Notes: generated by a model from the sequence alone, not told the origin. A stretch of DNA of 64,000 bases from an uncultured Candidatus Binatia bacterium (GCA_965242525.1 OZ251459.1:2137515-2201514); one strand, 5' to 3'. Numbered from the stretch's first letter, positions 11,995-55,465 are shown. Program-made: numbers and translations.

Positions 11995-12023
11995 TTGACA
12001 CTTCACGGAGTATGGAGTATAGG
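11995..12023 (+). promoter_or_regulatory. sigma70-like promoter of the low-GC operon: -35 TTGACA, 17-nt spacer, -10 TATAGG
   Basis: ggtaTTGACActtcacggagtatggagTATAGGcc sits immediately at the GC-content drop. It is followed by an AGGAG Shine-Dalgarno (12060-12064) and an in-frame GTG at 12072. Confidence 0.45.
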
Positions 12024-12071
12024 CCCCGACTAACTGATGCTTGGCCGCTTTCCCATGACAGGAGTTGTACC

Positions 12072-16051: not shown

Positions 16052-17688
16052 TTCCGTACAATGTACTGCTAGTCGAGCCCGGATACTTCAACAAGTATCC
16101 GCCGCTTGGGTTAATGAAGTTGGCAGCATATCATGGCGCTCGCGGTCGTGGCGACCGGGTCCGCTTCGTCAAAGGTGAGGATCGTGAAGTGTCGCTGGAG
16201 TCGTGGGATCGAGTTTATGTAGCTACATTGTTCAGTTTTGAATGGGCGCGTACTGCCGCGGCAATTGATTTTGCCATCCGGACCGTGCGCGGCCAGACAG
16301 AACGGGTATTTGTAGGCGGCATCGCCGCATCGCTTATGCATGAGCACTTTGAGAACGAACCACGATGGTCGGGTGTCCGTTTTATTAAAGGACTATTGAC
16401 TGATCCGCCGGCAGTTGCGCTGCGTTTATCAGCAGAAGATTGTGATTTTGGCTTTGACGACCACCAGGGACCCCCTATCGAGGAGTTGATTCCAGACTAC
16501 TCCATTCTCGATCAGATCGAATATTCCTATCCTGTCCGAGACGCCTACTTTGGATACGCTTCACGTGGTTGCGTTCGGAAATGTGCGTTCTGTGGCGTTC
16601 CTAAACTGGAAGGCGCTCAGCGCGAAATGCCTTCCCTTACTTCCTTGGTCAAAGGAATCGAAGATGCATACGGACCCAAGAAGGACCTGGTGTTGATGGA
16701 TAATAACGTCACGGCATCCCTGCGATACAAGGAGATAATTGCTGAAATCCGGGATCTCGGCTTCACGCCAGGCGCTAGGCTCGAACGCAGTGGGCGACCG
16801 CCGATCAAGCGACGCGTGGATTTCAATCAAGGCGTTGACGCGAGGATTCTTGCCAAGTCCCCGCTCTTTCTTAGGGAAATGGCAAAAATCTGTATCAGTC
16901 CTCTTCGTATCGCCTTTGACCACCTTGGGGTACGAAAAGTATATGAGACTTCTGTTCGAATGGCAGCACACCACGGAATCACCTCCTTATCAAACTATAT
17001 GCTCTATAACTTTATGGACACTCCCGCAGATCTATACGACCGCATGCGTTTGAATATTACCCTCAATAACGACTTGGGCATCCGTATTTGGTCATTTCCG
17101 ATGCGTTATCAGCCAGTCTATCTCAAGGACCGTTCCCACGTAGGCAAAAATTGGACGAGATACCAACTACGCTCCTTTCAGATTATGCTGCAGGCGACTC
17201 GAGGGGTTGTTAGCGGCAACCCTTCCTTCTTCATGCGGGCTTACGGAGAAGACAAACGCGACTTCGAACAACTTTTGAGTTTGCCACATGCTTTCATTTT
17301 TCACCGTGATTACTACGAGAGAGGACCAGGACGAGGCATCCGAGATGACTATGAGACGGCACGACGGCGCCTTTCCAAGTCTCAAGAACAGGAATTGCTT
17401 GGTTTGCTGGAAGGCTCGGACAGTGTACCGGGTTTTCGAAGGGATCGGCTTCGCTCTTTGGTAGCCGACCCTGGCATTGACACATCTATTCGTAGAGTCA
17501 TTCGATTTCACTTGCTGGATACAAAAGAGAAACCGCAGAACCCCATTCTGCCGCTCTTCCCCGACCTTAATCCTGATCCAGCTTTCCCTGACGACGATGA
17601 ACTTGTCGAGGACGCCGGACTCTTTGATCACGAACACGCCTTGGAACAATCTGAAAAGGCCATCAAAGGAAACCATCATGGTCAATGA
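16048..17688 (+). CDS. radical SAM enzyme with N-terminal cobalamin(B12)-binding-like domain (class B radical SAM-like)
   Basis: CX3CX2C in 'YASRGCVRKCAFCGV'. The N-terminus 'VLLVEPGYF..YPPLGLMKLAAYHGARG..VRFV' resembles the B12-binding domain of class B radical SAM proteins. Confidence 0.75.
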   Translation: MIPYNVLLVEPGYFNKYPPLGLMKLAAYHGARGRGDRVRFVKGEDREVSLESWDRVYVATLFSFEWARTAAAIDFAIRTVRGQTERVFVGGIAASLMHEHFENEPRWSGVRFIKGLLTDPPAVALRLSAEDCDFGFDDHQGPPIEELIPDYSILDQIEYSYPVRDAYFGYASRGCVRKCAFCGVPKLEGAQREMPSLTSLVKGIEDAYGPKKDLVLMDNNVTASLRYKEIIAEIRDLGFTPGARLERSGRPPIKRRVDFNQGVDARILAKSPLFLREMAKICISPLRIAFDHLGVRKVYETSVRMAAHHGITSLSNYMLYNFMDTPADLYDRMRLNITLNNDLGIRIWSFPMRYQPVYLKDRSHVGKNWTRYQLRSFQIMLQATRGVVSGNPSFFMRAYGEDKRDFEQLLSLPHAFIFHRDYYERGPGRGIRDDYETARRRLSKSQEQELLGLLEGSDSVPGFRRDRLRSLVADPGIDTSIRRVIRFHLLDTKEKPQNPILPLFPDLNPDPAFPDDDELVEDAGLFDHEHALEQSEKAIKGNHHGQ

Positions 17689-19186
17689 AGCAAGTGCTAT
17701 GACGACGACGACACGGCAGTCACTTGACTCGATTGGCAGCGACATTCTCAACCTAATTACCCTTGGAATGTACAATAACCCTCTTGCCATCTATCGCGAG
17801 TACATCCAAAACGCTGCGGATGCGCTTGCACGTTCTGGAAGTCGCACTGACGGCCAAGTGGCAATCCATTTTGACAAGTCCGCATCGTCCATAACGATTC
17901 GAGACACCGGACCAGGCCTATCACCGAAGTCCGCAAGACGCGCACTTTTGCCCATTGCCAAGAGCGAAAAGGAATTCCAGGCTGAACGCGGTTTTCGCGG
18001 CATCGGTCGCTTGTCCGGACTGGCTTTCGGCAAATCCGTCACCTTTCTTACGCGAGCACGAGGAGACCAGCCAGCAACAAGTGTCAAATGGGACGGACTG
18101 AAACTTCGGACAAACATTGACCAGCGCAAACCGATTGAACGGGTACTCAAGGAAGCTGTTACGGTAGAACCGCTAACAAGACCAGATTTCCCGCCACACT
18201 TCTTCGAGGTCCAAGTGAACGGTATCGCGCGACACGCAGCGGGACTGATACTCAATCGAGACGCGGTCCGGACGTACATTGGCGAAGTATGTCCTGTCCC
18301 TATTTCCCGATCCTTCCCCTTTGCAACCCGGATCCTCGCTTTATTCCAAGCGGAAGCTCCTTTATTCGCGCTGAACCTTGTCTTGGATGGCACCCCCGGC
18401 CCTGTCACACGCCCCTTTGACGACGCGATTCGATTTTCGGATGACAAGCTAGACAAGTTCACGGAGTTTCAGGAAATCAGGATCCCATCGGTAGACCGAG
18501 AAGGACATGCGGCAGTTGGCTGGATTGCACATTCAAATTATTTGGGCGCTATTCCCAAGGAACACGCCATTCGAGGTGTTCGAGCACGTGCGGGCAACAT
18601 ACAGATTGGGAACGAAGCTGTCTTTGATCACCTTTTTTCTGACGATCGCTTTAATCGCTGGTGTGTTGGCGAACTCCATATCATGGACTCGCGTATCATC
18701 CCCAATGCTCGCCGTGACTACTTTGAGCCGGGTCCACACATCCGAAACCTGGAGAACCAGCTTATCGCTGTATTTCGAGAAGTAGTTGCGCGATGCAGGA
18801 AGGCATCCGCAGAACGCAACAGGGAACGAAGGTTGCAGTCCGGATTGCGGGAAATCGAGGATGCTTATCACTTGGCACAATCCGGCTATTTGTCCATGGG
18901 AGATTCTCAAGCCTTGATCGCGCGCGGTCTCAACCGTCTCCAAGACTTCCGGAACAACTGGAGCGAGATGAACGCCTGTGCAAAGACGGAATTGGAAAAC
19001 CTTGAATCGAACCTTCAAAAATTCCAGCCTTCACATAGTCATCTACCCGTGGCTAATTTGTCAAAGTTGGAAGCGGCAACGTACAGAAAGCTTTTTCACG
19101 CTTTGGTAGAGACGTCCCCTTCCCCGCGCATTGCCAAAGAAACAATCGAAGCTGTCCTTGTCCACCTACAGCGCAGGGTCGCATGA
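17678..19186 (+). CDS. MORC/MutL-like GHKL (HATPase_c) ATPase
   Basis: Bergerat-fold boxes: N-box 'REYIQNAADAL', G1 'ITIRDTGPGL', G2 'FRGIGRLSGLAFG'. ATG 17678 overlaps the radical SAM stop (17686-17688). Confidence 0.75.
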   Translation: MVNEASAMTTTTRQSLDSIGSDILNLITLGMYNNPLAIYREYIQNAADALARSGSRTDGQVAIHFDKSASSITIRDTGPGLSPKSARRALLPIAKSEKEFQAERGFRGIGRLSGLAFGKSVTFLTRARGDQPATSVKWDGLKLRTNIDQRKPIERVLKEAVTVEPLTRPDFPPHFFEVQVNGIARHAAGLILNRDAVRTYIGEVCPVPISRSFPFATRILALFQAEAPLFALNLVLDGTPGPVTRPFDDAIRFSDDKLDKFTEFQEIRIPSVDREGHAAVGWIAHSNYLGAIPKEHAIRGVRARAGNIQIGNEAVFDHLFSDDRFNRWCVGELHIMDSRIIPNARRDYFEPGPHIRNLENQLIAVFREVVARCRKASAERNRERRLQSGLREIEDAYHLAQSGYLSMGDSQALIARGLNRLQDFRNNWSEMNACAKTELENLESNLQKFQPSHSHLPVANLSKLEAATYRKLFHALVETSPSPRIAKETIEAVLVHLQRRVA

Positions 19187-19199
19187 GAGGAAACGGCGT

Positions 19200-20684
19200 T
19201 CAGAGTTTCTCTACGCGGCTTGCCCTCGAACGCAGAAAGTTGAAATCGGCGTCGTCACCGACATCCGGCATCGCGAGCAAGCGTTCGATAAAAGTCTCCG
19301 GCTGACGCTGCTTCCGCTGTGTCTTCAAGCCGCCCCGCCATTCCAGCAGGACGACTTCTTCTCGAAGCTGTTCGCCGGTCACCGTCGAAGGGCGTGTCCG
19401 AAAGAGGTCGATGCCCATGACCCGGTAGTGCAACGACCGGGCCAAGTCGGCCAGGAGTCGGCCCGTGGGGATACGGACCCGCAGATACGACGCCTGGTCG
19501 CCGACCACGTAGGCGAGCCTGGCCCCCGGCTTGAGGACGGCGCGGAGCGACGCGAGGTGTTTCGCCATGCCGCCGAAGTAGAGCCGCGTGACGCGCGGAT
19601 ACAACCGCTCGAAGCCGGAGGTCTTGCCCAACTCGATACGGCGCTTCTCGATGGCTTCGGCGATGTCCCGTATCTCGGCATGGTCGGCAACCTCACGATC
19701 GTCCGTGTCCGCCTTATAGACGCCCCGGGTGTTGGACCGGATCAGGTTCCGTTTCATGGACCGCAATTCCTGCCGGTCGCGCACCAGTCCCAGGATGACG
19801 GACTCCAACCGTGTGGTGCGCGTGTAGTCCTTTTCGTTGGGATACGGCGGGGAGGTGATCACGGTATCGACGGACCCCGGCTCCAGCGCTCGATGGATCG
19901 CGCGGGCGTCCGCCTCCACGACCCGGGACGGCGCGTCCGTCCGGCCCTTGAGGAGTTCCAGGTCGCCGACGATGGTTCGGAAGCAGTCGAGCCAGGCGTC
20001 GACGGCCGGCGCGTCGTCCTTGATCCGGCCCACGCCGACTTCGGGACCGAACTTCAGGTTCCCGATGCGCAGCACCAGCGCGTTGGCAAGCGCCAGGCGG
20101 CCATAGGGCCGCAGTTGCGGCCGGTCGTGCCGGTCCATGGCGTCCAGCAGGGTCAGCGTCTTGTGGAGGGGCAGCGGACTGATGGAGTCCTTCAGCAGCA
20201 GTTTCGACCGGTCGGGGGGAAGACCCTGCAACACGGGTGGTCCGCTCCCGTTCGCGGCGAAGAGCGGAAGCCCCGCGGCCTCCCGGATGCCCTGCCGTTC
20301 CAGCGTCCTTCGCGCCGCCGCCGCAACCCGACGGGAATAGTCCGAAAGCGCCGCCGGGTCGGCCGACCAATCGACCTTCACCGAACTCGCAAAAGACCCC
20401 ATGGGGTTCGACTCGACGCCCACGCTGGGAATGCCGAGTTTCTTGCACTCCACCAACGTCGTGCCCGTGCCGCAGAAGGGGTCCAGGACCGTATGGGAGC
20501 GGTCCACGCCGAGCCGTTCCATGTAGTCCCTTACCAAGTGGGGCGGGAACGACAGGACGAACCGATACCATTGATGGGCCGGACGGTCTTCAGGCCGCAG
20601 CCTGTTCCGGTCGCCTTGGGTTCCGCCGGTGTCGGCAACCGCGGCCCGGCCGCTGCGCGTATCGGAAATCAGATCCGCCATCGG
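19200..20684 (-). CDS. SAM-dependent amino-methyltransferase, probably a DNA N6-adenine/N4-cytosine methyltransferase
   Basis: Motif I 'LDPFCGTGTTLV' and motif IV 'ITSPPYP' are separated by ~215 aa. The likely start is 'MADLISD' at 20684. The gene is convergent on the low-GC operon (stops 13 nt apart). GC is host-like. Confidence 0.55.
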   Translation of the reverse strand, partial: PMADLISDTRSGRAAVADTGGTQGDRNRLRPEDRPAHQWYRFVLSFPPHLVRDYMERLGVDRSHTVLDPFCGTGTTLVECKKLGIPSVGVESNPMGSFASSVKVDWSADPAALSDYSRRVAAAARRTLERQGIREAAGLPLFAANGSGPPVLQGLPPDRSKLLLKDSISPLPLHKTLTLLDAMDRHDRPQLRPYGRLALANALVLRIGNLKFGPEVGVGRIKDDAPAVDAWLDCFRTIVGDLELLKGRTDAPSRVVEADARAIHRALEPGSVDTVITSPPYPNEKDYTRTTRLESVILGLVRDRQELRSMKRNLIRSNTRGVYKADTDDREVADHAEIRDIAEAIEKRRIELGKTSGFERLYPRVTRLYFGGMAKHLASLRAVLKPGARLAYVVGDQASYLRVRIPTGRLLADLARSLHYRVMGIDLFRTRPSTVTGEQLREEVVLLEWRGGLKTQRKQRQPETFIERLLAMPDVGDDADFNFLRSRASRVEKL

Positions 20685-43529: not shown

Positions 43530-43752
43530 GGTGCGAGGACCTGACGTGAGAGACGCGACGTTGATAGCCCAACGCTACCCGTGAGTCAAACCAGGCAGGC
43601 GCAGGCCACGGAGAAAGACGCCTTCCATTGCGAACATGGTGACCGGCATCCTCCGTCCACCGGCTCGACCGGGACAGGAAGACGTGCTAAGCAGGAACCT
43701 GCGGTGGCGGGATGGACCGGGCGGGCCGTCATCGTGAGGAGGCCGAACATTC

Positions 43753-44022
43753 ATGGAAAACATGGAAGACAGAGAGCTATTGAAACGCATCGAATTGAAT
43801 CCAGGGGTGATGGGAGGGAAGGCCGTCATCAAGGGCACACGTTTGACGGTGGAACACATCCTCAACCTGCTCGCCCACGGCGAGACCGTTGAAAAGATCA
43901 CGGCGGAGTACGACGGAATCGCCCAAGAAGACGTTTTGGCCTGCGTCCTGTTTGCCGCGAAAGCCCTGGGGGACACCACCTTCGCACCGTTGGCTGCAGA
44001 GACGCCTGGATGCGGTTCCTGA
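43753..44022 (+). CDS. DUF433-family antitoxin-like protein
   Basis: 'NPGVMGGKAVIKGTRLTVEHILNLLAHGETVEKITAEYDGIAQEDVLA' is the DUF433 signature. Confidence 0.6.
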   Translation: MENMEDRELLKRIELNPGVMGGKAVIKGTRLTVEHILNLLAHGETVEKITAEYDGIAQEDVLACVLFAAKALGDTTFAPLAAETPGCGS

Positions 44023-44363
44023 TAGACGAATGCGTTGGCCCCACGGTAGCGCAGTGGTTGCGACAAGAAGGGCACGACGTATTCTCCGTCTTCGAGGAGG
44101 CGCGCGGCGCAACCGACGAAGAACTCGTTCGCAAAGCGCACCGGGAGAACCGAATTCTCCTGACGACCGACAAGGATTTTGGCGAGAAAGCATTCCGAGA
44201 ACGCAGGTCGCACAGGGGGATTGTCTTGCTGAGGCTGCAAGACGAACGCCCAATGAACCAAGTGAGGGTCATTCGGCGCCTCCTACAGCTTTACGAAAAT
44301 CAACTGCCGGATCGATTCTCGGTAGTCACGGAGGCTGGCGTTCGGTTCGCCATGAACATGTAG
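44010..44363 (+). CDS. DUF5615 (PIN-like) toxin-like protein, partner of DUF433
   Basis: 'MRFLIDECVGPTVAQWLRQEGHDV...LLTTDKDF'. It overlaps the upstream gene. Confidence 0.6.
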   Translation: MRFLIDECVGPTVAQWLRQEGHDVFSVFEEARGATDEELVRKAHRENRILLTTDKDFGEKAFRERRSHRGIVLLRLQDERPMNQVRVIRRLLQLYENQLPDRFSVVTEAGVRFAMNM

Positions 44364-44403
44364 CGAGGCGCGTCCGATCGGATTTGCCTGAGCCGTTGAC
44401 GGC

Positions 44404-45186
44404 GTGCCGGGGCCGAGCCGTCCCGCGCAACGCGGCGCCATCTCTTCGTACCCGCCCGGCGAGGCAGGGGTAGCCGCCGCTCACCGGCCGGCGGTCTCGC
44501 CGCCGGCCGGTGAAAACCTCATGATCGACGTCCGGTCACTTTCCGTCACGGGGATGCAGTGGCGGGCGGGCCGACTGTGGCTTGCGTCCGCGGACGAGTC
44601 CCTGGTGGCAGCCTACGACCCCGCAAGCGGGTCGTGCGACGAGGTCCTTTCGTTTCCGGGGGTCCGGCACGCCTGCCCGTCCAACGAAGGCCTCTGGCTC
44701 ATCACCGCCGGCGGACGGCTGGGGCAACAGTTGCTCCTGTGGTCCCTCGAAACCAACCGGGTGACCCGGCGTTTCGACTGCCCTGACGGCGCCGCGTCCG
44801 GCGTCACCGTGCTGAACGACAAGCTGTGGCTGAGCCACCGGCGCAACCGCAAGCTGTTCTGCATGGACCCGCAGAGCGGCCGCCCACTGTGGACCATCCG
44901 CACCGAGAACCAGATCCTCAACCCCACTTCGCACCAGGGCGAGCTCTGGTTCGTCGAATGCGACCCCGGACCCTTGGGAGACTGGAGCGACGAGAGCCAG
45001 GCGGGGTACTCGTTCCTCCGTTACGACCCCGTGCGCGAACTGGCGGCGGAGCGTCTCCCCGTGCCCTTTCGCCCGACGTGCCTGGCTCTGGACGGGGAGC
45101 GTTTCTGGTACGCCGTGCAGGACGAGCCCGGCCTCCGTGTTCGGAGCCGGAGGGCGCTGCTTCCCCGCAGACGGATGCTCGACTGA
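44404..45186 (+). CDS. hypothetical protein with PQQ-like beta-propeller 'LW' repeats
   Basis: Recurrent 'LWL/LWT/LWF/FWY' blade-like repeats. The start is uncertain; it may be 'MIDVRS' at 44521. Confidence 0.3.
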   Translation: MPGPSRPAQRGAISSYPPGEAGVAAAHRPAVSPPAGENLMIDVRSLSVTGMQWRAGRLWLASADESLVAAYDPASGSCDEVLSFPGVRHACPSNEGLWLITAGGRLGQQLLLWSLETNRVTRRFDCPDGAASGVTVLNDKLWLSHRRNRKLFCMDPQSGRPLWTIRTENQILNPTSHQGELWFVECDPGPLGDWSDESQAGYSFLRYDPVRELAAERLPVPFRPTCLALDGERFWYAVQDEPGLRVRSRRALLPRRRMLD

Positions 45187-45395
45187 CCGTCCGGGGCTCC
45201 CGCCCAGTCAGGCACGACTGCGTGGGATGCTGTTGCTCAGCCGGCCTCCCTTGATGAGCCTCTTCCCCGCCAAGCACGGCTACATCCTTACCCTGGCCGC
45301 CACGTGGGCGGGAAGCATCGGAGGGCAGGGGATAGCTGCCAACGGACCGTCTCCTTGACACGACTCGAAATGTAAAGCAGGATTTCACAACCGAA

Positions 45396-45465
45396 AGGAA
45401 CCACTGAACAACGATCCTCGTTCATCCTGAGCGAAGGCGAAGGTCGCGCCTTTCCATAGGGAGAA
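45396..45465 (-). repeat. truncated family A MITE fragment
   Basis: 'ggaaccactgaacaacgatcctcgttcatcctgagcgaaggcgaaggtcgcgcc' matches the TIR plus the reverse-complement core. Confidence 0.5.
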
Positions 45466-45677
45466 GGAACTCAAGCCGAGTTGGATCAGACGGTCCAAAA
45501 GGCAACCAGAGATCTTGCCATGGTCACATCCACGATTACCCTAAGGGCAGACCACGCTGCCCGGCTTCGATCCGTTGCGACAGCTATCCATGGCCGACGG
45601 ACCTTACAGCTACCAGACCGACGCGGATTCCTGTGCACGGACCACCAGCAGACTGAACGCGCGAAGGAGGTCTTGTC

Positions 45678-47024
45678 GTGGACGCGAGAGAACTGATCTT
45701 GCAGGACGTACGCTGCTTCCAGGACGAACAGCGTGGCCGCTTGCGGCCCGTCACGCTGCTCGTGGGCGAGAACAGTACCGGCAAGACGACCTTCCTGGGC
45801 TGTTACAGGGTGTTGCATGGGATGTTTTCCAATCCAGGGATCGGCGAATTCCTGGATTTCAACGGAGAGCCTTTCGTCATGGGTTCGTTCCGCGACATCG
45901 TCCGGTCACGACGCGGCCCGAGCGGCCGTATCGACGAGTTCAAGATCGGGGTCCGAGTCGATCGATCGCCAGACGACGTCATGTCACCGTGTGAGCTGTC
46001 GGTTGCTTTTCGCGAGAAAGGCTCGGAACCGGTGGTCTCGTCCTTGCGTTTCCAGTTCGATTCCGATGCGTTCCTAGAGATGAGTTCAGATGAGGAAGGA
46101 ACCATCGTGCAGATTCCAGGCCTTACCGAGCACGCCAAGGGTGTTCCGCTTGTTCGCACGATGGCCATGTTGGACTTCGTGATCCGCGATCCCGATTTTT
46201 GGGGAATGCCCCCCGGATGGTCAAACTTGGAAACCAGCTTCGAGTATCTCCATGGCCTGTTCTTCCGCCGAGGAGCCGCAAAGAGAAAACACACCGAACT
46301 TCAATGGCCTTTCGACGACGAGCTCCCGCGTTTGCCCGACCTGATTCCGGTCGCACCGCTTCGTTCCAAGCCCAAACGTACCTACGATCCGATACGCGAG
46401 ACCGCTTCCCCGGAAGGGGAACATGTCCCGATGCTGATGATGAGGCTGGATCGCACGGACACGCCGCACTGGAAATCGCTGCACAACGACCTCGTGAAGT
46501 TCGGCCAGGGTTCCGGGCTATTCGCCGACATCAAGGTGAAACGCCACGGCAAGCAGATGAGCGACCCTTTTCAGTTGCAGGTCAAGGTACGATCCGGACC
46601 TCATTCGAACCTCATGGACGTCGGTTACGGCGTCAGCCAGAGCCTGCCGATTCTCGTGGATGTGCTGAAAGGGTCCAGCAGCGGACGCAAGTGCGAGTTC
46701 CTGCTCCAGCAGCCGGAGGTTCACCTGCACCCTCGAGGCCAGGCGGAACTCGCCAGTCTGTTCGTCCAAGCGTTCAAGCAGAGTGGAAACCGGTTCCTGA
46801 TCGAGACCCACAGCGACTACATCATCGACCGCGTGCGCATTTCGGTCCGAAAAGGGCTGCTGAAGCCCGACGACGTGTCCCTTCTCTACTTCGAACCCAA
46901 GAGCAACGCCGTCGAGATCCACAACATGACCCTGGACGAGCATGGAAACCTCCTTGGCGCGCCGAGGGGATACCGTGACTTCTTCCTGAAGGAAACCGAC
47001 AGACTGCTGGGGTTCACGGACTGA
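45678..47024 (+). CDS. ABC/SMC-type AAA ATPase (AAA_15/AAA_21-like; OLD/PtuA/AriA-like ATPase)
   Basis: Walker A 'LLVGENSTGKTT', Walker B/D-loop 'FLLQQPEVHLHP', H-loop 'IETHSDYI'. Confidence 0.7.
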   Translation: MDARELILQDVRCFQDEQRGRLRPVTLLVGENSTGKTTFLGCYRVLHGMFSNPGIGEFLDFNGEPFVMGSFRDIVRSRRGPSGRIDEFKIGVRVDRSPDDVMSPCELSVAFREKGSEPVVSSLRFQFDSDAFLEMSSDEEGTIVQIPGLTEHAKGVPLVRTMAMLDFVIRDPDFWGMPPGWSNLETSFEYLHGLFFRRGAAKRKHTELQWPFDDELPRLPDLIPVAPLRSKPKRTYDPIRETASPEGEHVPMLMMRLDRTDTPHWKSLHNDLVKFGQGSGLFADIKVKRHGKQMSDPFQLQVKVRSGPHSNLMDVGYGVSQSLPILVDVLKGSSSGRKCEFLLQQPEVHLHPRGQAELASLFVQAFKQSGNRFLIETHSDYIIDRVRISVRKGLLKPDDVSLLYFEPKSNAVEIHNMTLDEHGNLLGAPRGYRDFFLKETDRLLGFTD

Positions 47025-47036
47025 GGGCCACCGAAG

Positions 47037-47516
47037 ATGTGCATCATCGTGGACGCCAACAAGCTCGATGTCTTTCTCGCCGACCCGGCCGACGAGAATT
47101 CCAGGCCGATACGCAGGTGGCTAAGTCAGGGCGCGGGGAGCATCGTGTATTCGACGGAAGGCAAGTTTGCGCAGGAGATCCGAGGTCGAGCCAAGGCCAA
47201 GCTGGCCGATTACGTTCGAGCCGGCAGAGCGAAGCACGTCCCCGCGAGCCTGTTCGCCGACGAAGAACGCAAGCTGGAAACTCACGCAGACCTCCGCTCC
47301 GATGATCCGCACGTGCTCGCGTTGGCGAGAGCGACCGGTGTACGTCTCCTGTACACCGCAGACGGGAAACTCACGTCGGACTTCAAGAACAAGAACATCA
47401 TCGACCGGCCGAGGGGCAAGGTTTATTCCGGCGCAGGCAATGCCAATCTGCTGACCCCCTCGGCATGTGCGTCGTCATGGCCAAGGTCTGCTTCGAAATC
47501 ATGGCCGACTTCATAG
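47037..47516 (+). CDS. PIN-like nuclease-domain protein (partner of the upstream ATPase)
   Basis: 'MCIIVDANKL' and 'DDPHVLALARATGVRLLYTADGKL' resemble PIN acidic motifs. It starts 13 nt after the ATPase stop. Confidence 0.4.
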   Translation: MCIIVDANKLDVFLADPADENSRPIRRWLSQGAGSIVYSTEGKFAQEIRGRAKAKLADYVRAGRAKHVPASLFADEERKLETHADLRSDDPHVLALARATGVRLLYTADGKLTSDFKNKNIIDRPRGKVYSGAGNANLLTPSACASSWPRSASKSWPTS

Positions 47517-47586
47517 ACACCGGCATCGCCGGGAACCTGAAGCGTCCGGGATCCAGCAATTGAGGACAGGATCGAGAAATCCGGCA

Positions 47587-49347
47587 ATGCGGTTCAGCGA
47601 CGCGGACATCGAGCACCGGTTGCGCTTGGGCGAGGACAGCGCCTGGGAGTTCAAGCAGGTCGAGTTCGCCGGGAACCGTCCGAGCCGCCCGAGCCGGGAC
47701 GACTGGGCGGACGAGATCGCGGCGTTCGCCAATGCGCGCGGCGGCGTGTTGCTCTGCGGCGTCAGCGACGATGGACAGGCGCAGGACATGTCGCGGGAGC
47801 AGATGGCCGCACTGGATGCCTTGCTCGTGGAAGTCAGCACCGATTCCATCAAACCGCCGGTACGCGTCCAGACATGGCACAGGATGCTGCCGGAGGGCAG
47901 GCGGGTGCTGCTGCTCGAAGTCCCGGAGAGCGACTCGCAGCACGACAGCCCTGGCGGAAGCTACCTTCGAGTAGGCGCCTCGAAGCGCAGGATGACGAAC
48001 GACGAGCGATTGCGTCTGGCGCAGCGGCGGGGACAGGCGCGGTTCCGCTGGTTCGACGAACAGACCGTCCCGAATACGGGCTTCCGAACGCTGGACGAGT
48101 CCCTGTGGCGGCATCTGCTCAGCGCCGAGGGCGCGGCGAATCCCGAGGCGGCGCTTGAAAAACTGGCGCTCCTGGCGCCCGACGAGGCCGGGGTCATGCG
48201 GGCAACCGTGACCGGCGTGTTGCTGTGCACCCGGAACCCGGAGGAGCGGCTGCCCAACGTCGGCATTACGGCGACGCACTATCGGGGAAGGGACCGCGCC
48301 TCCGGCCAGATCGACGCACGCGAGATCGGCGGCCCGCTGGACCAGCAGGTTGCGGACGCGATGGTCTTCGTGGCGCGGAACATGCGGGTGGCGGCGCGCA
48401 AGGAGCCGGCCCGCGTGGACGTGCCGGAATACAGCGACCGTGCGCTGTTCGAAGCCCTGGTCAACGCAGTGGCGCATCGCGACTATTCCATGCGCGGCAG
48501 CCGCATCCGGCTTTCCATGTTCGAAGACCGCCTGGAGATCCAGTCGCCCGGCTCGCTGCCGAACAACCTGACGGTGGACAGCATGGCGACGCGGCAAGCC
48601 GCCCGCAACCAGACGTTGACCTCCGTGCTCGGGCGCATGCCGGTGGGAGGAATCCGGGGTTCCGAGGAAAGACGGTATTTCATGGAACGGCGCGGGGACG
48701 GCGTTCCGATCATCCTGCGCGAAACCCGGGGGCTTTGCGGGAGACCGCCCGAATACCGGGTGATCGACGACGCGGAAGTCTGCCTCGTCATTCCCGCGGC
48801 GCCGCAGGAGCCGAGCCCCGTCCGCGCCGTCGTCAGCGTGCAGTGCGCCGGGAAGCCGCTGGCGGATGTGGACGTGCTGGCGCTGTTTCCCAACGACACA
48901 TGGAAACGCGCCGCCACCGACGAACACGGAGAGGCGCGCCTGGAACTGCACTCCGGCCGTCTGCCGATGACGGTGTTCGCCGCGGCAACGGGTTTCTCCG
49001 CCCATGTCCGTCTCGACTGGCTGCCCGCGGAGGAGGGCCGTCTCCGTCTCGAACTGGATGCCTTGCCCGGCGGCGGCGCAGTCATCCTCACCGAGGACAC
49101 CGGCGCGCTCCCGGGGCTCAAGGGAACGTTGAATCCCGTCCGCGACGCCCTCGACCGCACCTGGCTGTACGCCTCCAACATCGCCGTCAACCAGGGCCAG
49201 CCCCAGCCCGTGCACTTCATTCCCGGCGAAGACCTGCGCCTCACGGACGCCGACGGAAACGAGGCGTGGGCGCGTATCGTCGCCGTCACCGGCAGGTCGT
49301 CGCTGGTGGAGTACCGCCCGGCGGCGAAGCAGGGTCAAGTGAAGTAG
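47587..49347 (+). CDS. AlbA_2 (Schlafen-like) DNA-binding domain + HATPase_c_4 protein ('putative transcriptional regulator / RecG C-terminal-like ATPase')
   Basis: 'EDSAWEFKQVEF...EIAAFANARGGVLLCGVSDDGQ' AlbA_2 signature. Central 'LFEALVNAVAHRDYS' matches the HATPase_c_4 region. Confidence 0.7.
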   Translation: MRFSDADIEHRLRLGEDSAWEFKQVEFAGNRPSRPSRDDWADEIAAFANARGGVLLCGVSDDGQAQDMSREQMAALDALLVEVSTDSIKPPVRVQTWHRMLPEGRRVLLLEVPESDSQHDSPGGSYLRVGASKRRMTNDERLRLAQRRGQARFRWFDEQTVPNTGFRTLDESLWRHLLSAEGAANPEAALEKLALLAPDEAGVMRATVTGVLLCTRNPEERLPNVGITATHYRGRDRASGQIDAREIGGPLDQQVADAMVFVARNMRVAARKEPARVDVPEYSDRALFEALVNAVAHRDYSMRGSRIRLSMFEDRLEIQSPGSLPNNLTVDSMATRQAARNQTLTSVLGRMPVGGIRGSEERRYFMERRGDGVPIILRETRGLCGRPPEYRVIDDAEVCLVIPAAPQEPSPVRAVVSVQCAGKPLADVDVLALFPNDTWKRAATDEHGEARLELHSGRLPMTVFAAATGFSAHVRLDWLPAEEGRLRLELDALPGGGAVILTEDTGALPGLKGTLNPVRDALDRTWLYASNIAVNQGQPQPVHFIPGEDLRLTDADGNEAWARIVAVTGRSSLVEYRPAAKQGQVK

Positions 49348-49364
49348 AGGGGAGAGATTTCGCC

Positions 49365-49598
49365 ATGCTCACGTCCGCGATTACCTCGAAGGGCCGGACG
49401 ACGCTGCCCAAACCGGTTCGGGAGGCCCTTGGAGTGGGGGCCGGAAACCGTGTGCGCTACGTCATCCTCGACAACGAGGTTCGGGTTCTGCCCATGCGGC
49501 CCATCGGGCGGTTGTTCGGCGCACTGAAGCACGACGGCCCGCGGGTTACGGTGGAGGACATGGAACGCGCCATCACGGAAGGGGCGTGCGAGGAATGA
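49365..49598 (+). CDS. AbrB/MazE-family (SpoVT-AbrB fold) antitoxin-like protein
   Basis: 'SKGRTTLPKPVREALGVGAGNRVRYVI' is a swapped-hairpin barrel motif. Its stop overlaps the hsdS ATG. Confidence 0.65.
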   Translation: MLTSAITSKGRTTLPKPVREALGVGAGNRVRYVILDNEVRVLPMRPIGRLFGALKHDGPRVTVEDMERAITEGACEE

Positions 49599-50926
49599 GC
49601 GCGTTGGACACCAACTCCGCAGCCAGTAGAAAACCGCCGGCTAGCTGGCTCTATCGTCCACTGTTTCCGGCTCATTGGGAGCGCAGGCCACTTTACTCCA
49701 TGGCGCAATGGGTCAACGGACTGGCCTATCGGAATATCGAGTTCAGTGCGGCGGGACGCCCGATTATCAAGATCGCAGAGATCAAGGGCGGCATCTCGGA
49801 TCAAACCAGGTTTACATATCAAAACTTCGACGAATCGGTACGCGTGCGTGCAGGCGACCTATTGTTTTCCTGGTCTGGACAGCCGGAAACTTCCATTGAT
49901 GCGTTCCGGTGGCGTGGTCCGGAAGGCTGGTTGAACCAACATATCTTTCGTGTCACTCCCGCCGCCGGAATCGATGCCACCTTCTTTTTCTATCTCTTGC
50001 GATACCTGAATGCTCATTTCGTTGCCATTGCACGGAACAAGCAGACGATAGGTCTCGGACACGTCACAAAGCACGACCTGGAAAATATCGAGGCGGCTCT
50101 ACCCGACCGCCAGGAGCAACGCGCCATCGCTCACATCCTGGGCACGCTGGACGACAAGATCGAGTTGAACCGGCGCATGAACGAGACGCTGGAGGCCATG
50201 GCGCGGGCGCTGTTCCAGTCATGGTTCGTCGATTTCGATCCCGTGCACGCCAAGATGGAAGGCCGTGATACCGGCCTCCCCAAGCCAATCTCCGACCTCT
50301 TCCCCGATCACCTCGTGGATTCCGAGCGTGGCGAGATCCCCGAGGGATGGAAAATCAAGTCCCTGAGAGAATGTTTCCGTCTTACGATGGGGCAATCACC
50401 CCCGGGCAACACCTACAATGACCGTAGCGACGGGTTGCCTTTCTTTCAGGGACGAACTGACTTCGGGTTTCGATTTCCCGAGAATCGGAAATTCTGCACT
50501 GCTCCAACGCGGGTCGCTCAACCTGGGGATACGCTTGTCAGTGTCAGAGCGCCCGTGGGAGACATCAACATGGCATGGGAAGAATGCTGCATTGGACGCG
50601 GCGTTGCCGCACTCCGGCACCAGTCGGGTTCAAGCTCGTTCACCTATTACTCGGCTTGGGCAGTACAGAACAAAATCAGAGAGTATGAGGACACGGGTAC
50701 GGTGTTCGGAGCCATCAATCGAAAACAATTTGAAGCACTCCAGACGCTGGAACCCTCACCGGATATTGTCAATGCGTTCGACGCCCAAGCTGGACCGGTA
50801 GATGTCCGCATCAGGAACAACGTAACCGAGTCCCGAATCCTTACGACCCTGAGAGAAATCTTGCTGCCCAAGTTGATCTCCGGCGAAACCCGCCTCCGAG
50901 ACGCCGCGGAGCAGGCGGATTTGTAG
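49595..50926 (+). CDS. hsdS: type I restriction-modification specificity subunit HsdS (orphan; no hsdM/hsdR in window)
   Basis: Two target-recognition domains and conserved central/C-terminal repeats ('QRAIAHILGTLDDKIELNRRMNETLEAMARALFQSWFVDFDPV', 'LREILLPKLISGE'). Confidence 0.85.
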   Translation: MSALDTNSAASRKPPASWLYRPLFPAHWERRPLYSMAQWVNGLAYRNIEFSAAGRPIIKIAEIKGGISDQTRFTYQNFDESVRVRAGDLLFSWSGQPETSIDAFRWRGPEGWLNQHIFRVTPAAGIDATFFFYLLRYLNAHFVAIARNKQTIGLGHVTKHDLENIEAALPDRQEQRAIAHILGTLDDKIELNRRMNETLEAMARALFQSWFVDFDPVHAKMEGRDTGLPKPISDLFPDHLVDSERGEIPEGWKIKSLRECFRLTMGQSPPGNTYNDRSDGLPFFQGRTDFGFRFPENRKFCTAPTRVAQPGDTLVSVRAPVGDINMAWEECCIGRGVAALRHQSGSSSFTYYSAWAVQNKIREYEDTGTVFGAINRKQFEALQTLEPSPDIVNAFDAQAGPVDVRIRNNVTESRILTTLREILLPKLISGETRLRDAAEQADL

Positions 50927-51127
50927 GCCATCCCATGAAAAACCAATCGAAGTATTCCAGTTCCGAGACCATCGCCGAGACTTTTCGATATCTGGGACTT
51001 GACGATCCAAAACTGCGCAGTCGATTACGAGGGTTCTCCAAACCGGGGATATCGCCTCCTCGAGTCGAGAGACGCAGCAGCAAACTTGTCACTCGGAACA
51101 ACACCGCGCCAGATCAAGGAGACGATC

Positions 51128-51854
51128 ATGCCCAACTGGAATCAACTACTTGACGAGATTCGCGCCGCTGGCAGCATGTATGATGTGGTTCGCCGTCGGT
51201 ATCTGTCCAGGATCCATGAACTGACCGGTCGAAATGTGATAGTCTATTCCTCAGGTTGGCTTCAAAGAGGCAACTTGCCGGGCGTAGAGATCAACGATGA
51301 TGACAAGAACGGATTCATGACCGTCATTCATCAGATGAAGCGCGATATCGGCCTCGATCTTGTCTTGCACACCCCTGGCGGCGATGCGGCTGCCATCGAA
51401 TCCATCGTCGATTACCTGCGCTCCATGTTTCAAACAGACATACGGGCGCTCGTGCCACAGCTCGCCATGTCCGGCGGTACGATGATTGCATGCGCATGCA
51501 AGGAAATATTCATGGGAAAGCAGTCGAGTCTCGGTCCGATTGATCCTCAATTGGGAGGTATTCCAGCCCATGGCTTGGTGGAAGAGTTCAACCGCGCCAA
51601 ACTTGTCCATCGAACGATGCCGGGAGATGGGCCTGAAGGTCACCGAACTCGAAAAGAGTCAAGAGCTACAGGACGCGGTACTTTCATTGCACCATGCTTG
51701 CATGCTCACATTTACAGCTACTTCGGCCTTCAAGATCATCGAAAATCATAGGGGAATTGCATTCATCAAGATGGCACAGCCGGTCCTGGTCTCCGGGGCG
51801 CCGACCGGCAACCCGGAGCCAAGCAGGGCGCCACTGGAGCAACCGGAGAAGTGA
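51128..51854 (+). CDS. S49/SDH-family (ClpP-fold) serine peptidase, apparently frameshifted near 51.6 kb
   Basis: 'VLHTPGGDAAAIESIVDYLR...LAMSGGTMIACACKEIFMGKQSSLGPIDPQ' in one frame. A plausible C-terminal continuation ('SIERCREMGLKVTELEKSQELQDAVLSLHHACMLTF...') is in the +1 frame (ORF 51486..51854). Confidence 0.45.
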
Positions 51855-51905
51855 TCGCCTTGGGGAATCGCAAAGCGGCGCTTCGGCAATCCCGGAGATG
51901 GTACA

Positions 51906-53147
51906 ATGATCCCGATGATCCCACAGCCCCATGAACCACCGCGCGTCCAGCGCTTGAAAGTCCGTAACTTCCGCGCCTTGCGGGAGGTCGAGATCAGGAA
52001 CCTGACGCCGATGACGGTGCTGCTCGGTCCCAATGGCAGCGGCAAGTCCACCGTGTTCGACGTGTTTGCGTTCCTCTCGGAGTGCTTCGCATCCGGACTT
52101 CGGCGCGCATGGGACCGTCGCGGCCGGGCCAGGGAGATCAGGACCCGCGACGCCGAAGGGCCGATGACGATCGAGCTTCAATACCGCGAGCAGCCGAAAC
52201 CGCCGCTCATCACCTACCACTTGGAAGTGGACGAGCACCGGGGCGCGCCGGTGGTCGTCCACGAATGGCTGCAATGGACGCGGGGCAGAGCAGGGAAGCC
52301 GTTCCGTTTCCTCGAATACCGGAACGGCTTGGGCAAAGCGACCAGCGGCGAGGCGCCCGATGCGGAAGACGAGAGGCGGGAGATCCCGCTCAAATCGCCT
52401 GATCTGCTGGCGGTCAACGCGCTTGGGCAGTTCCAGGAACACCCGCGCGTGGCGGCGCTTCGCGACTTCATCATGGGCTGGCACGTTTCGTACCTCTCCG
52501 CAGACAGTGCGCGCGGCCAACCCGAAGCGGGGCCGCAGGAACGGTTGACCACCACCGGCGACAACCTCGCCAACGTGGTCCAGTACCTGAGCGAGCAGCA
52601 TCCGGCGCGGCTCGACGCCGTCTTCGAGACGCTGCGCAGGCGCGTGCCTCGTATCGATCGCATGTGGACCGAGCTCATGCCGGACGGCCGGCTGTTGCTG
52701 CAAATCAAGGACGCCCCGTTCAGCCACCCGGTTCTGTCGCGCTTCGCCTCCGACGGCACACTGAAGATGCTGGCCTACCTGGTGCTGCTGCACGACCCGG
52801 AACCGCCGCCGTTCATCGGTATCGAGGAGCCGGAAAACTTCCTGCACCCGCGGTTGCTTCCCGAGTTGGCGGAGGAGTGCCGCGCGGCCTGCGAGCGCAC
52901 GCAGTTGATGGTCACTACCCACTCGCCGTTCTTCCTGAACGCGCTGAGACCCGAGGAAGTCCGCGTCCTGTGGCGCGACGAAGCGGGCCATACGCGGGTG
53001 CAGCGGGTCGCCGACCTGGACCGTGTCCGTGCTTTCGTGGATGAAGGCGCACTGCTCGGCGATCTGTGGATGGAAGGCCAGTTCGGCGTGGGCGATCCGT
53101 TGACCCGGCATGGAGCTCCGGCGCGCGGCAGCGGAGATCGTCGATGA
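51906..53147 (+). CDS. ABC-type AAA ATPase (AAA_21-like), partner of DUF4276 protein
   Basis: Walker A '[11 protein letters not shown]', Walker B '[13 protein letters not shown]', H-loop 'VTTHSPFF'. Confidence 0.7.
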
Positions 53148-53761
53148 CGGCCGCGCGGCACCTGGAGTTCCTGGTCGAAGAACAGTCGATGGAGGCTTTT
53201 CTGCGAGGACTGCTACCGCGCCTGCTTCCCGAAGGCTGCACGTTCGAAATTCGTGTATTCCAAGGCAAACGCGATCTGATGCGACGACTCGATAGTCGTC
53301 TGCGCGGCTACAGACACTGGCTGTCCGATGAATACCGGCTCGTGGTGATGGTCGATTGCGACCGTGACGATTGCCGAACGCTCAAGGCGCGGCTCGAAGA
53401 TGCGGCAGCCGGTTCGGGACTGCACACTCGTTCGCGAGCCGAAGATGACCGCTGGCAGGTGCTCAACCGCATCGTGATCGAAGAACTGGAGGCGTGGTAT
53501 TTCGGCGATTGGGAAGCTGTGCGCAACGCCTTTCCCCGAGTGTCTTCCACAATCCCGAATAAACCGCGTTACGGGAAACCCGACGCGATCCCGGACACAT
53601 GGGAGGAATTCGGGCGCATACTGAAAAAGCACGGATACCACAGGGCCGGGCTGCGCAAGATCGAAGCCGCACGGCTCATCGCGCCGAAGATCAATCCGGC
53701 GCGCAACCGTTCGCCGAGCTTTGCGGCCTTTCGCGATGTCCTCGCCGAGGCGACCGCATGA
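53144..53761 (+). CDS. DUF4276-family protein (Toprim-like), coupled to upstream ATPase
   Basis: '[37 protein letters not shown]...[12 protein letters not shown]' matches DUF4276. ATGA start/stop overlap with the ATPase. Confidence 0.6.
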
Positions 53762-53840
53762 GGCGCCTGCCGACCGGGAGCGGCGGCGCATAACGGGACG
53801 ACGGGCGGCGCGGCACAGGGACGGCGCAAGGACAGAATCG

Positions 53841-55439
53841 ATGACACAATCGGAAACGGGTTCGGACCCGCGCGCAGCGCGGCGGAAACTCCCCATCGGT
53901 ATCCAGACCTTCCGCGAGATCCGCGAAGACGGCTGCTACTACGTGGACAAGACCGCCTACGTCCAGCGGCTGGTGGACGAAGGCAAGCACTACTTCCTGT
54001 CGCGTCCGCGACGCTTCGGCAAGAGCCTCCTGGTGGACACCATCAAAGAGCTGTTCGAAGGCAACGAGCCGCTGTTTCGGGGTCTCGCCATCCACGACAG
54101 GTGGGACTGGTCCGCTCCTCGTCCCGTGCTGCGCTTCGACTTCGGGGACGGCGGCTATGACGAACCCGGCCTCGTGCACAAGGAGGCCGCGGCGCGCCTG
54201 GGCGCCCTGGAGCGGGGGTTCGCGGTCGCCCCCCACGACGACATCGCCCCGGCCCGTTTCCGGCACCTGTTGCAGACGCTGCACGAACGCACCGGCCGGC
54301 GGGCCGCGGTGCTGATCGACGAATACGACAAGCCGATCCTGGACGCGCTGAGGTCGCCGGAGACAGCCCGCGCCAACCGCGACTTTCTGCACGGGTTGTA
54401 CTCCGTCATCAAGTCCGCGGACGCACACGTCGAATTCACCCTGCTCACCGGGGTGAGCAAGTTCTCCAAGGTCAGCCTGTTCTCGGGCTTGAACAACCTC
54501 AAGGACATCACCCTGGACCCGCGCTACTCCGCCATCTGCGGCTACACCGAGGCGGACCTCGACACGGTGTTCGCCCCGGAGTTGCTGGGACTGGACCGGG
54601 GCGAGATCCGCCGCTGGTACAACGGCTACGGCTGGCTCGGCGACGAGAAGGTCTATAACCCCTTCGACATCCTCCTGCTCTTCGACACCCGACGGTTCAA
54701 GGCATGGTGGTTCGAGACCGGCACGCCGACGTTCCTCATCGACACGCTGCTGGAGCGGGGGGTCGGCTCGCTGGCCCTCGAGGACATGCTCGGCGACGAT
54801 GCCTTGCTGTCCGCCTTCGACGTGGGCGCCATCGCCACCGAGGCGCTGCTGTTCCAGACCGGCTACCTCACCATCCATGACGAACGGGACGTGGGCGGAG
54901 AGGCCGCTTACCGGCTGGGCTATCCCAACCGGGAGGTGCGCCAGAGCCTGAACCGGAGCCTGTTGAGCCGCCTCGCGGACGATCCATCCGGCCCGACAGG
55001 GCACCGCGTCCGGCTGTACGACCTGTTGCGGGACAACGATTTCGACGGCATGGAGGCGCTGCTCAGGGCATTCTTCGCCGGGATTCCGTACCAGTGGCAT
55101 ACGAAGAACGACATCGCCGACTACGAAGGCTACTACGCGAGCGTGTTCTACGCCCTGTTCGCGTCCGCGGGGCTGGACATGACGGTGGAAGACAGCAGCA
55201 GCCGCGGGCGGGTGGAACTCACGGTGCGCCTCGACGGCAGCGTGTACCTGTTCGAGTTCAAGGTGGTGGACCCGGCCCCCCCGGGGTCGTCGGCGCAGCA
55301 AAGCGCCGCGATGACCCAGTTGCGCGAGCGGGGCTATGCGGACAAGCACCGGAGTTCCGGCCGGCCGATCCACCTGATCGCAGTGGAGTTCAGCAAGGAG
55401 ACCCGCAACCTGGCCGTGTTCGAGGCAGCGCCGGCCTGA
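53841..55439 (+). CDS. predicted AAA-ATPase (PF09820-like) with C-terminal PD-(D/E)XK-like domain, paralogue of the 10369 gene
   Basis: 'KLPIGIQTFREIREDGCYYVDKTAYVQRLVDEGKHYFLSRPRRFGKSL' and C-terminal 'GRVELTVRLDGSVYLFEFKVV'. Confidence 0.75.
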   Translation: MTQSETGSDPRAARRKLPIGIQTFREIREDGCYYVDKTAYVQRLVDEGKHYFLSRPRRFGKSLLVDTIKELFEGNEPLFRGLAIHDRWDWSAPRPVLRFDFGDGGYDEPGLVHKEAAARLGALERGFAVAPHDDIAPARFRHLLQTLHERTGRRAAVLIDEYDKPILDALRSPETARANRDFLHGLYSVIKSADAHVEFTLLTGVSKFSKVSLFSGLNNLKDITLDPRYSAICGYTEADLDTVFAPELLGLDRGEIRRWYNGYGWLGDEKVYNPFDILLLFDTRRFKAWWFETGTPTFLIDTLLERGVGSLALEDMLGDDALLSAFDVGAIATEALLFQTGYLTIHDERDVGGEAAYRLGYPNREVRQSLNRSLLSRLADDPSGPTGHRVRLYDLLRDNDFDGMEALLRAFFAGIPYQWHTKNDIADYEGYYASVFYALFASAGLDMTVEDSSSRGRVELTVRLDGSVYLFEFKVVDPAPPGSSAQQSAAMTQLRERGYADKHRSSGRPIHLIAVEFSKETRNLAVFEAAPA

Positions 55440-55465
55440 AGCGCCCGGCCGTACGGCACGCAACG

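Follow-up and report, generated by a model that had tools for sequence, protein, structure and literature searches.

Gene content and boundaries of the variable region

The 64,000-nucleotide (nt) stretch of DNA analysed here (the window) comes from an uncultured Candidatus Binatia bacterium (GCA_965242525.1 OZ251459.1:2137515-2201514). The interval 43753-55439 of the window, located between a xanthine-dehydrogenase (XDH)-family operon and an oligopeptide ABC transporter (Opp), carries two pairs of genes for an ABC ATPase and a small putative nuclease, surrounded by toxin-antitoxin (TA)-like and restriction-related genes (Table 1). We regard this annotation, together with the view that the stretch between the two operons consists of two recombination-prone variable spots, as highly probable. 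The hotspot is real and its contents are mostly ordinary; the one moderately new component is a two-gene ATPase-PIN cassette (g4 and g5). Genes were assigned by profile scans with Pfam, NCBIfam, and PADLOC (2023 models). Every gene that an earlier note, made by reading the sequence, had listed for this region was recovered where that note had placed it, on the plus strand and with profile support.

Table 1. Features of the variable region, with positions counted from the first nucleotide of the window.
Feature	Coordinates	Strand	Evidence
g1, DUF433 protein, antitoxin-like TA partner	43753-44022	+	Pfam DUF433 5e-21; spot A
g2, DUF5615/PIN_10/Mut7-C protein, PIN-like toxin candidate	44010-44363	+	Pfam 4e-25, 1e-10, 2e-9
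β-propeller (PQQ_2-like) core gene	44521-45186	+	Weak Pfam PQQ_2 1e-6; synteny
g4, NsnB/HEC-03A-clade ABC ATPase with DUF3696 tail	45678-47024	+	PADLOC NsnB 2.3e-43
g5, stand-alone PIN-fold protein, 159 aa	47037-47516	+	Family-wide Pfam scan; AF2 model
g6, SLFN_AlbA_2 + HATPase_c_4 protein	47587-49347	+	Pfam 5e-17, 2.5e-18
g7, AbrB/MazE-type antitoxin-like DNA-binding protein	49365-49598	+	Pfam MazE_antitoxin 2e-7; NCBIfam AbrB domain
g8, orphan HsdS, Type I specificity subunit	49595-50926	+	PADLOC Specificity_I 5e-76
g9, SDH-type ClpP-like serine protease pseudogene	51128-51773	+	Pfam SDH_protease 7e-21; tblastn
g10, HEC-01A ABC ATPase (MAD3-like)	51906-53147	+	PADLOC HEC-01A 7e-160
g11, HEC-01B, DUF4276 TOPRIM-type nuclease candidate (MAD4-like)	53144-53761	+	PADLOC HEC-01B 7.5e-83
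g12, AAA-ATPase_like + PDDEXK_9 protein	53838-55439	+	Pfam 1e-60, 8e-19
Block swapped relative to the nearest relative, L001	50255-53821	no strand	blastn

The guanine-plus-cytosine (GC) content of 43753-55439 is 62.6%, against 68.5% in a background from which both low-GC regions of the window were left out. Values in 1-kb bins lie between 0.55 and 0.69 and dip to 0.58 at 46-47 kb and to 0.55-0.56 at 50-52 kb. The GC content of single genes varies between 52 and 69%, and only g1, g2, g4, g8, and g9 lie at 52-59%. GC at third codon positions (GC3) is 0.55-0.74 in g1, g2, g4, g5, g8, g9, and g11, versus 0.90-0.92 in the flanking core genes. Judging from the 1-kb bins and the per-gene GC3 values, the AT shift is therefore real but patchy and milder than the drop to 50-58% given in the earlier note, which was correct as to the drop and overstated its extent.

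The boundaries of the variable sequence were determined by comparison with three metagenomic relatives (L087, L088, and L096), whose XDH and Opp proteins are ~80% identical to those of the window. All three have the order OppB, OppC, a 1.9-2.1 kb segment with one TPR-like gene of ~550 amino acids (aa), the β-propeller gene, a variable segment of 1.1-3.3 kb, XDH-FAD, and XDH-large. The β-propeller gene is 73-78% identical and syntenic between the OppC and XDH genes in these genomes and in L089, and its GC3 is 0.86; it is therefore a core gene that separates two variable spots. In the window, the DUF433/DUF5615 pair occupies spot A (43531-44520), and g4-g12 lie in spot B (45187-55465). Thus, the earlier description of a single defence-like island stands as far as the defence hotspot is concerned but not as a single island, since the core gene divides it. 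The earlier note had also named conservation of the gene order in distant core genomes as an observation that would speak against its view. The order was not kept: spot B measures 10.3 kb in the window and ~2 kb in the ~80%-identity relatives, and a different 3' block is present in the nearest relative, L001.

This nearest relative (93% DNA identity) shares the sequence from g4 up to the 5' part of g8, and then from g12 through the Opp genes; its proteins for g4-g6 and g12 are 86-94% identical to those of the window. The intervening 3.57-kb block of the window, which contains the C-terminal half of HsdS, the protease pseudogene, and the HEC-01 pair (g10 and g11), replaces 2.25 kb of L001 carrying the second target-recognition domain (TRD2) of HsdS and a TPR gene, while the flanks are 90-93% identical. 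The swapped block coincides with the lowest-GC bins. The breakpoint of this recombination maps to about 50254/50255, midway through hsdS, and one target-recognition half of this gene was exchanged together with the downstream genes as a single block. A search of the flanks of the region for att-like repeats, tRNA genes, and integrases yielded nothing convincing, and scans of the region for promoters and terminators gave results at chance level only. The region has the look of a recombination hotspot and not of an integrative element, and it exemplifies cleanly the exchange of cassettes at a chromosomal site of this kind, with a breakpoint that falls within hsdS.

A region of this kind could also be mostly inert debris of past horizontal transfers, and the protease pseudogene, the HsdS gene without HsdM and HsdR, the truncation of the AlbA_2 gene (g6) in two other genomes (L007 and L008), and the failure to find mobility genes or att repeats all agree with such an origin. 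However, the AlbA_2 gene, the TA pair, and the genes of both ATPase-nuclease pairs have uninterrupted full-length open reading frames (ORFs) with conserved motifs, and g4-g6 and g12 have been retained in L001 at the protein identity given above. We therefore consider the debris explanation improbable.

The two ATPase-nuclease pairs

The first pair consists of g4 and of g5, which starts 12 nt downstream on the same strand. The pairing was assessed in 79 species-representative genomes with a g5 homologue, 78 of which were assessable. Of these 78 genomes, 74 have a full-length g4 homologue as the next gene upstream in the same orientation, usually after a gap of 4-26 nt; three have only fragments of it and one has none. 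The identities of the g4 and g5 homologues to the window pair are correlated (r = 0.93). A third conserved partner was sought and rejected, since the best cluster of real ORFs occurs in only 9 of 82 loci, and the larger clusters proved to be shadow ORFs within g4 or g5. As judged from these sequence comparisons, the ATPase-PIN pair is a self-contained two-gene cassette. Its hosts are all metagenome-assembled genomes (MAGs) and belong to at least eight phyla, with representatives among Gamma- and Alphaproteobacteria, Vicinamibacterales, Spirochaetia, Latescibacterota, Poribacteria, Entotheonella, Poriferihabitans, Chloroflexi, Calditrichaceae, Kuenenia, and Rhodothermales. We take several of these lineages and bin names to be typical of sponge and coral microbiomes.

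The surroundings of the cassette varied from genome to genome. The cassette of a Chromatiales MAG (L002) adjoins a gene for a 1229-aa SIR2_2 protein, DUF433/RHH genes, and a second ATPase pair. This second pair (L002, 6758-8766; also in L003) follows the cassette and comprises an AAA_15 ATPase (510 aa) and a small protein (159 aa) that has a D…EFK motif and may be PD-(D/E)xK or HEC-02-like; when considered as a relative of the PIN family, the small protein was found to be unrelated. The gene call for the cassette ATPase of L006 (3289-5988) joins it to an upstream Fic/DUF8091 protein in one product of 899 aa, whereas the near-identical genome L005 (3471-5988) has two genes there. Either the fusion is genuine, or the two calls differ through the assembly or a frameshift.

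The best PADLOC match of g4 was to NsnB and covered residues 5-444, followed by PDC-M55A (4e-38) and the HEC-03 ATPase model PDLC04148 (7.5e-23, residues 260-430). Pfam matches were to AAA_15 (3e-12), AAA_21, and DUF3696, the last just under the cut-off (5e-4). The sequences of HEC-01 and HEC-03 used for comparison were those of Table S2 of Payne et al. (2024 preprint; bioRxiv 10.1101/2024.01.29.577857). A BLASTP comparison of g4 with HEC-03A gave 24% identity over 393 aa (E = 4e-15). The Walker A motif, the 'DVGYGVSQ' signature, and the H-loop are kept in 74 g4 homologues, and residues about 80-230 are poorly conserved. The Asp-Glu of Walker B is changed to Gln-Gln, and the resulting motif 'QQPEVHLHP' is invariant in the 74 homologues (g4 residues 344-354, window 46707-46739); its counterpart is EQ in HEC-03A and reportedly EN in NsnB. 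Replacement of the Walker B glutamate by glutamine in ABC ATPases blocks hydrolysis and traps the ATP-bound dimer. The natural Gln-Gln of g4 therefore suggests that ATP may serve as a switch and not as fuel. A sequence search of the structure database found no close solved-structure relatives of g4, g5, or g11; the closest relative of g10 with a solved structure was PtuA (2e-13).

Direct scans of g5 with Pfam, NCBIfam, and PADLOC gave no match. When 50 members of its family were scanned, Pfam PIN was matched by 39 (best 2.5e-6). The AlphaFold2 (AF2) model of g5 has a mean predicted local distance difference test score (pLDDT) of 87.8, a predicted template-modelling (TM) score (pTM) of 0.84, and β-α-β topology. 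Its top Foldseek matches in the PDB were VapC/FitB PIN toxins, with E values of 7e-4 to 1e-2, probabilities of 0.9-1.0, and TM scores of 0.46-0.60. Searching PDB sequences with a profile of the PIN family returned only spurious RuvB-like matches, which were rejected. The g5 family is large: 418 or more close homologues were found, and its members form 1,775 clusters at 50% identity. Among the 1,775 cluster representatives, the 150 best-scoring are 89-221 aa long (most of them 140-170 aa) and have no extra domain. A scan of 2.9 million viral contigs revealed no member of the PIN family.

Residues D6, E47, D90, D109, and D115 of g5 are conserved at 97-100% in 257 sequences. D6 closes β1, E47 is part of a helix, D90 precedes helix 91-100, and D109 follows β4 within a 'T-x-D' context. 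According to the alignment and the model, D6/E47/D90/D109 correspond to the canonical acidic constellation of PIN domains, and g5 is apparently catalytically competent and the proposed RNase effector of the cassette. Two cysteines, C2 and C144 near the C-terminus, are also conserved (97% and 99% of the 257 members) and could form a disulfide or a metal site. HEC-03B likewise ends with two cysteines.

The second pair, g10 and g11, is by sequence a clear member of HEC-01 and a plain new copy of a catalogued candidate. The HEC-01A model (PDLC04182) covered residues 12-397 of g10, and g11 matched both HEC-01B (PDLC04202) and Pfam DUF4276 (3e-31). Identity to the HEC-01 proteins of Pseudomonas agarici tested by Payne et al. 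is 42% for g10 (E = 3e-107) and 34% for g11. The N-terminal Glu and the DxD motif (D70-C-D72) of g11 align with the E and the D-Q-D of the tested HEC-01B. HEC-01B has been described as TOPRIM-like (bioRxiv 10.1101/2024.01.29.577857), and DUF4276 as a Toprim domain with E and DxD (PMC12065111). The overlap between g10 and g11 (53144-53147) is an ATGA, visible in the sequence, as the earlier note had described it.

HEC-01 corresponds to MAD3-MAD4, an accessory module of MADS (Hma), in which deletion of mad3 or mad4 lowers defence (bioRxiv 10.1101/2023.03.30.534895). The window pair, unlike this module, stands alone, with no MAD6-8 or methylase nearby. A hidden MADS or Type I restriction-modification system was considered and rejected, since the match of HsdS to mad5 is weak and neither a methylase nor HsdR nor MAD6-8 was present.

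Relationship to known systems and proposed mechanism

Comparison of the ATPase-PIN cassette with HEC-03 of Pseudomonas cichorii (WP_025259138 and WP_025259137) demonstrated the same two-gene plan, namely a DUF3696 ABC ATPase of ~450 aa followed by a PIN protein of ~157 aa (461 and 157 aa in P. cichorii). The ATPases are homologous and have in common the Walker B variant 'xQPE[VI]HLHP' and the signature 'DVG[YF]GVSQ'; like the window pair, HEC-03 has no antitoxin-like small partner and no third gene. Thus, a DUF3696-type ATPase with an adjoining downstream small PIN gene is present in the window, whereas its effector does not belong to the HEC-03B family. The window ATPase also scores better on the NsnB and PDC-M55A models than on the HEC-03 model. 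None of the 50 g5 family members matched the HEC-03, Nsn, or PDC models of PADLOC at E ≤ 1, and the only matches were single-member strays to mad2 and DrmC. HEC-03 protects Escherichia coli, both of its genes being required, and is toxic on induction (bioRxiv 10.1101/2024.01.29.577857).

The second point of comparison was Menshen (NsnABC; Millman 2022; Li et al., 2025, PMC12065111). The window ATPase is of NsnB type, with DUF3696, a degenerate Walker B, and a GxG signature, and its partner has the PIN fold that is also found at the N-terminus of NsnC. However, this partner consists of the PIN domain only, a single domain of 144-166 aa in the family, without a C-terminal BECR, Toprim, or PLD effector domain. 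NsnA (ParB-DUF262 + ParBDB) was found neither in the window nor in the 82 related loci; the gene upstream of g4 is the core β-propeller gene. In addition, the inactive PIN domains (inPINs) of Menshen lack the acidic set (PMC12065111), whereas g5 keeps D-E-D-D. An NsnB is therefore present, but NsnA and an NsnC with an inactive PIN and a C-terminal nuclease domain are not. The absence of NsnA and the single active-looking PIN indicate that the cassette is not Menshen.

Could the pair then be a decayed, non-functional Menshen in which NsnA is gone and NsnC has been stripped of its C-terminal effector domain? In favour of such an origin, NsnB is the best PADLOC match of the ATPase, and NsnC starts with a PIN-like domain (PMC12065111). 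Nevertheless, the two-gene form recurs in 74 of 78 genomes from at least eight phyla without an NsnA-like third gene, the PIN family forms 1,775 clusters whose 150 best representatives carry no additional domain, and the acidic residues absent from the Menshen inPINs are 97-100% conserved. Decay of this kind is very improbable and is already largely refuted by the conservation.

The earlier note had likened the ATPase-small nuclease pairs to PARIS, Septu, and Gabija in their logic, and had stressed that the partners differ (PIN-like and DUF4276). The likeness is supported by the PADLOC match to HEC-01, the HEC-03-like architecture, and the homology to HEC-03A: the common logic would be that an OLD-type ABC ATPase controls a small nuclease, and partial matches of hidden Markov models (HMMs) to AriA, PtuA, and GajA were obtained. 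These matches are confined to ATPase motifs, and the effectors of the three systems (DUF4435-TOPRIM, HNH, and fused TOPRIM) contrast with PIN and DUF4276 in the window. The AriA matches, for instance, are partial (6e-15 and 1.9e-29), and neither small partner matches the AriB model, so that no PARIS was identified. The partner families thus do differ, but the pairs are not novel on that account, since both kinds have already been described.

The same ATPases gave weak N-terminal matches to RecF, SMC, and Rad50 models, which would be expected if the pairs served housekeeping DNA repair as a RecF/SMC/Rad50-like ATPase with a nuclease. These matches cover the P-loop region only and are far under the cut-offs, whereas the full-length matches are to defence models. 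Furthermore, the genes are missing at this locus in the 80%-identity relatives and are patchy across phyla, and a repair function is extremely improbable.

Based on the analogy with PARIS, Septu, and the predicted NsnB4-NsnC2 complex, in which the PIN-like domain of NsnC would be held in a clamp formed by the DUF3696 tails of NsnB (PMC12065111), a mechanism may be proposed for the ATPase-PIN cassette, to which we would give even odds. An oligomer of the ATPase would sequester the PIN protein through its C-terminal DUF3696 tails, and the poorly conserved insert region of the ATPase would sense a phage cue. ATP binding would then release or activate the PIN RNase, and cleavage of host or phage RNA would lead to abortive infection. 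The HEC-01 pair would act like the ATPase-PIN pair, with the TOPRIM nuclease as its effector. For the explanation as a whole, in which the annotation and the hotspot are combined with this mechanism, we estimate a probability of about 0.6.

The predicted fold and acidic residues of g5 are VapC-like, but its upstream partner is a 448-aa ATPase and not a VapB-type antitoxin of the VapBC/FitAB kind. An addiction module is nevertheless conceivable, in which the ATPase would act as the antitoxin to a VapC-like toxin and stabilize the variable region or mobile DNA instead of sensing phage. The closeness of the g5 fold to VapC/FitB toxins, the tight coupling of the genes with the small toxin downstream, and the toxicity of HEC-03 on induction (bioRxiv 10.1101/2024.01.29.577857) are compatible with this function, as are the TA-rich surroundings (DUF433/DUF5615, AbrB, and HEPN/MNT pairs in relatives). 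On the other hand, the partner is not a small antitoxin but an ABC ATPase whose clade occurs in the validated defence systems Menshen and HEC-03, and the PIN family was found in none of the 2.9 million viral contigs, a scan that covered viral contigs and not plasmids. TA and abortive-infection roles are, moreover, compatible with each other. A mainly addictive role is unlikely in our view.

Several observations weigh against defence by an ATPase-controlled nuclease as the favoured explanation. The one HEC-01 homologue that has been tested gave no protection in E. coli (bioRxiv 10.1101/2024.01.29.577857), and because of this negative result defence by stand-alone HEC-01 is unproven. The cassette of L005 lies among metabolic genes and a transposase, and its proximity to other defence genes outside the window amounts to anecdotal instances (L002, L009, and L015). 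Parts of the island itself are decayed, namely the protease pseudogene and the orphan HsdS. The Gln-Gln Walker B may mean that the ATPase does not hydrolyze ATP at all. Finally, g5 and HEC-03B share a motif of only 32-35 residues, with an hhalign probability of 11% for an alignment of 50 sequences and 51% for 257 sequences; orthology to HEC-03 therefore rests on the ATPase and the architecture. Given the HEC-03 architecture together with the motif-only likeness of the PIN proteins and the lack of a model match, we class the cassette as a HEC-03-type variant whose ATPase belongs to the NsnB-type clade.

Placed in this way, the ATPase-PIN cassette links HEC-03, which has been validated, with Menshen, whose mechanism has only been predicted, and provides a simpler model, with two proteins only, in which to ask how PIN-fold partners are controlled by ABC ATPases of the DUF3696 type. 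The PIN family is absent from the 2023 PADLOC models of HEC-03, Menshen, and PDC, and censuses of defence systems may therefore count too few of these cassettes, above all in uncultured symbiont lineages. More tentatively, and with the balance in our opinion somewhat against it, the cassette might be a distinct, widespread two-gene defence family, abundant in MAGs from lineages typical of sponge and coral symbionts, in which an NsnB-type ATPase, crippled for hydrolysis by Gln-Gln, licenses an active stand-alone PIN RNase. It would then represent a minimal, possibly ancestral form from which the inactive-PIN adaptor and the swapped effectors of Menshen evolved.

Other genes of the region and the window

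In spot A, g1 and g2 overlap by 13 nt. The GC3 of g1 is 0.70, against 0.90 in core genes, and g1 is absent at spot A of L088 and L096. With a small DUF433 gene overlapping a PIN-like DUF5615 gene, the pair has the arrangement of a type II TA module with a predicted toxin. Reading of the sequences of spot A in L088 (8857-10000) and L096 (6732-10000) suggested an MqsA-like HTH antitoxin, or a 619-aa ATPase with a KGGVGR motif and an MqsA-like gene.

The C-terminal ~150 aa of g6 are uncharacterised, and its PADLOC matches are only partial, to fusion proteins. A g6 homologue follows the PIN gene in four related MAGs (L001 and L007-L009), and its occurrence elsewhere is sporadic.

The stop codon of g7 overlaps the start codon of g8 (ATGA at 49595), and hsdS is translationally coupled to the AbrB gene. 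No HsdM or HsdR, including N6_Mtase domains, was present among the scanned genes of the island or of the first island of the window, nor in L001, L008, and L009. HsdS was accordingly borne out as an orphan among the window genes scanned, and a Type I restriction-modification system, in which HsdM and HsdR accompany HsdS, was not found among them. HEPN/MNT (NTase_sub_bind/Polbeta) pairs precede an orphan HsdS gene in L008 (12600-18940) and L009 (13000-17450), where no HsdM or HsdR occurs within 10 kb. In L008 and L009, the stop codon of the HsdS gene overlaps the start codon of the next gene, which encodes a 989-aa TPR protein or a SIR2_2 protein.

The frameshift that the earlier note had noticed in the SDH peptidase gene (g9) was traced to an internal deletion with a change of frame. 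The Pfam SDH_protease match spans only positions 75-173 of the 286 in the profile. A tblastn comparison with a 301-aa plasmid homologue placed residues 1-163 of the latter at 51128-51598 and residues 241-298 at 51600-51773, in the next frame. This two-frame split indicates that ~77 codons were deleted and the frame was changed, so the SDH protease is a proven pseudogene. A conceptually 'repaired' version of the protease did not extend the Pfam match.

Another low-GC region of the window (12000-19200; GC 47-53%) forms a first island of ~7 co-directional genes. They include an SNF2 helicase gene (13521-15020), matched by PADLOC in the helicase portion of ZorD/DpdE only, and a gene for a MORC-like HATPase_c_3 protein (17477-19186). 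Four genes of this first island have no Pfam or PADLOC match, and no recognised system was assigned to it.

The AAA/PD-(D/E)XK gene (g12), which has no PADLOC match, had been called a paralogue, but no paralogue of it exists within the window. It has a host-like GC3 of 0.90, is 92% identical and occupies the same position in L001, and is absent from L088 and L096; g12 is probably resident rather than recently acquired. Homologues of g12 (AAA-ATPase_like/PDDEXK_9) lie less than 4 kb from the ATPase-PIN cassette in two unrelated MAGs (L029, 11500-12441, and L062, 14111-14366), and this neighbourhood hints at a loose association of the g12 family with defence islands.

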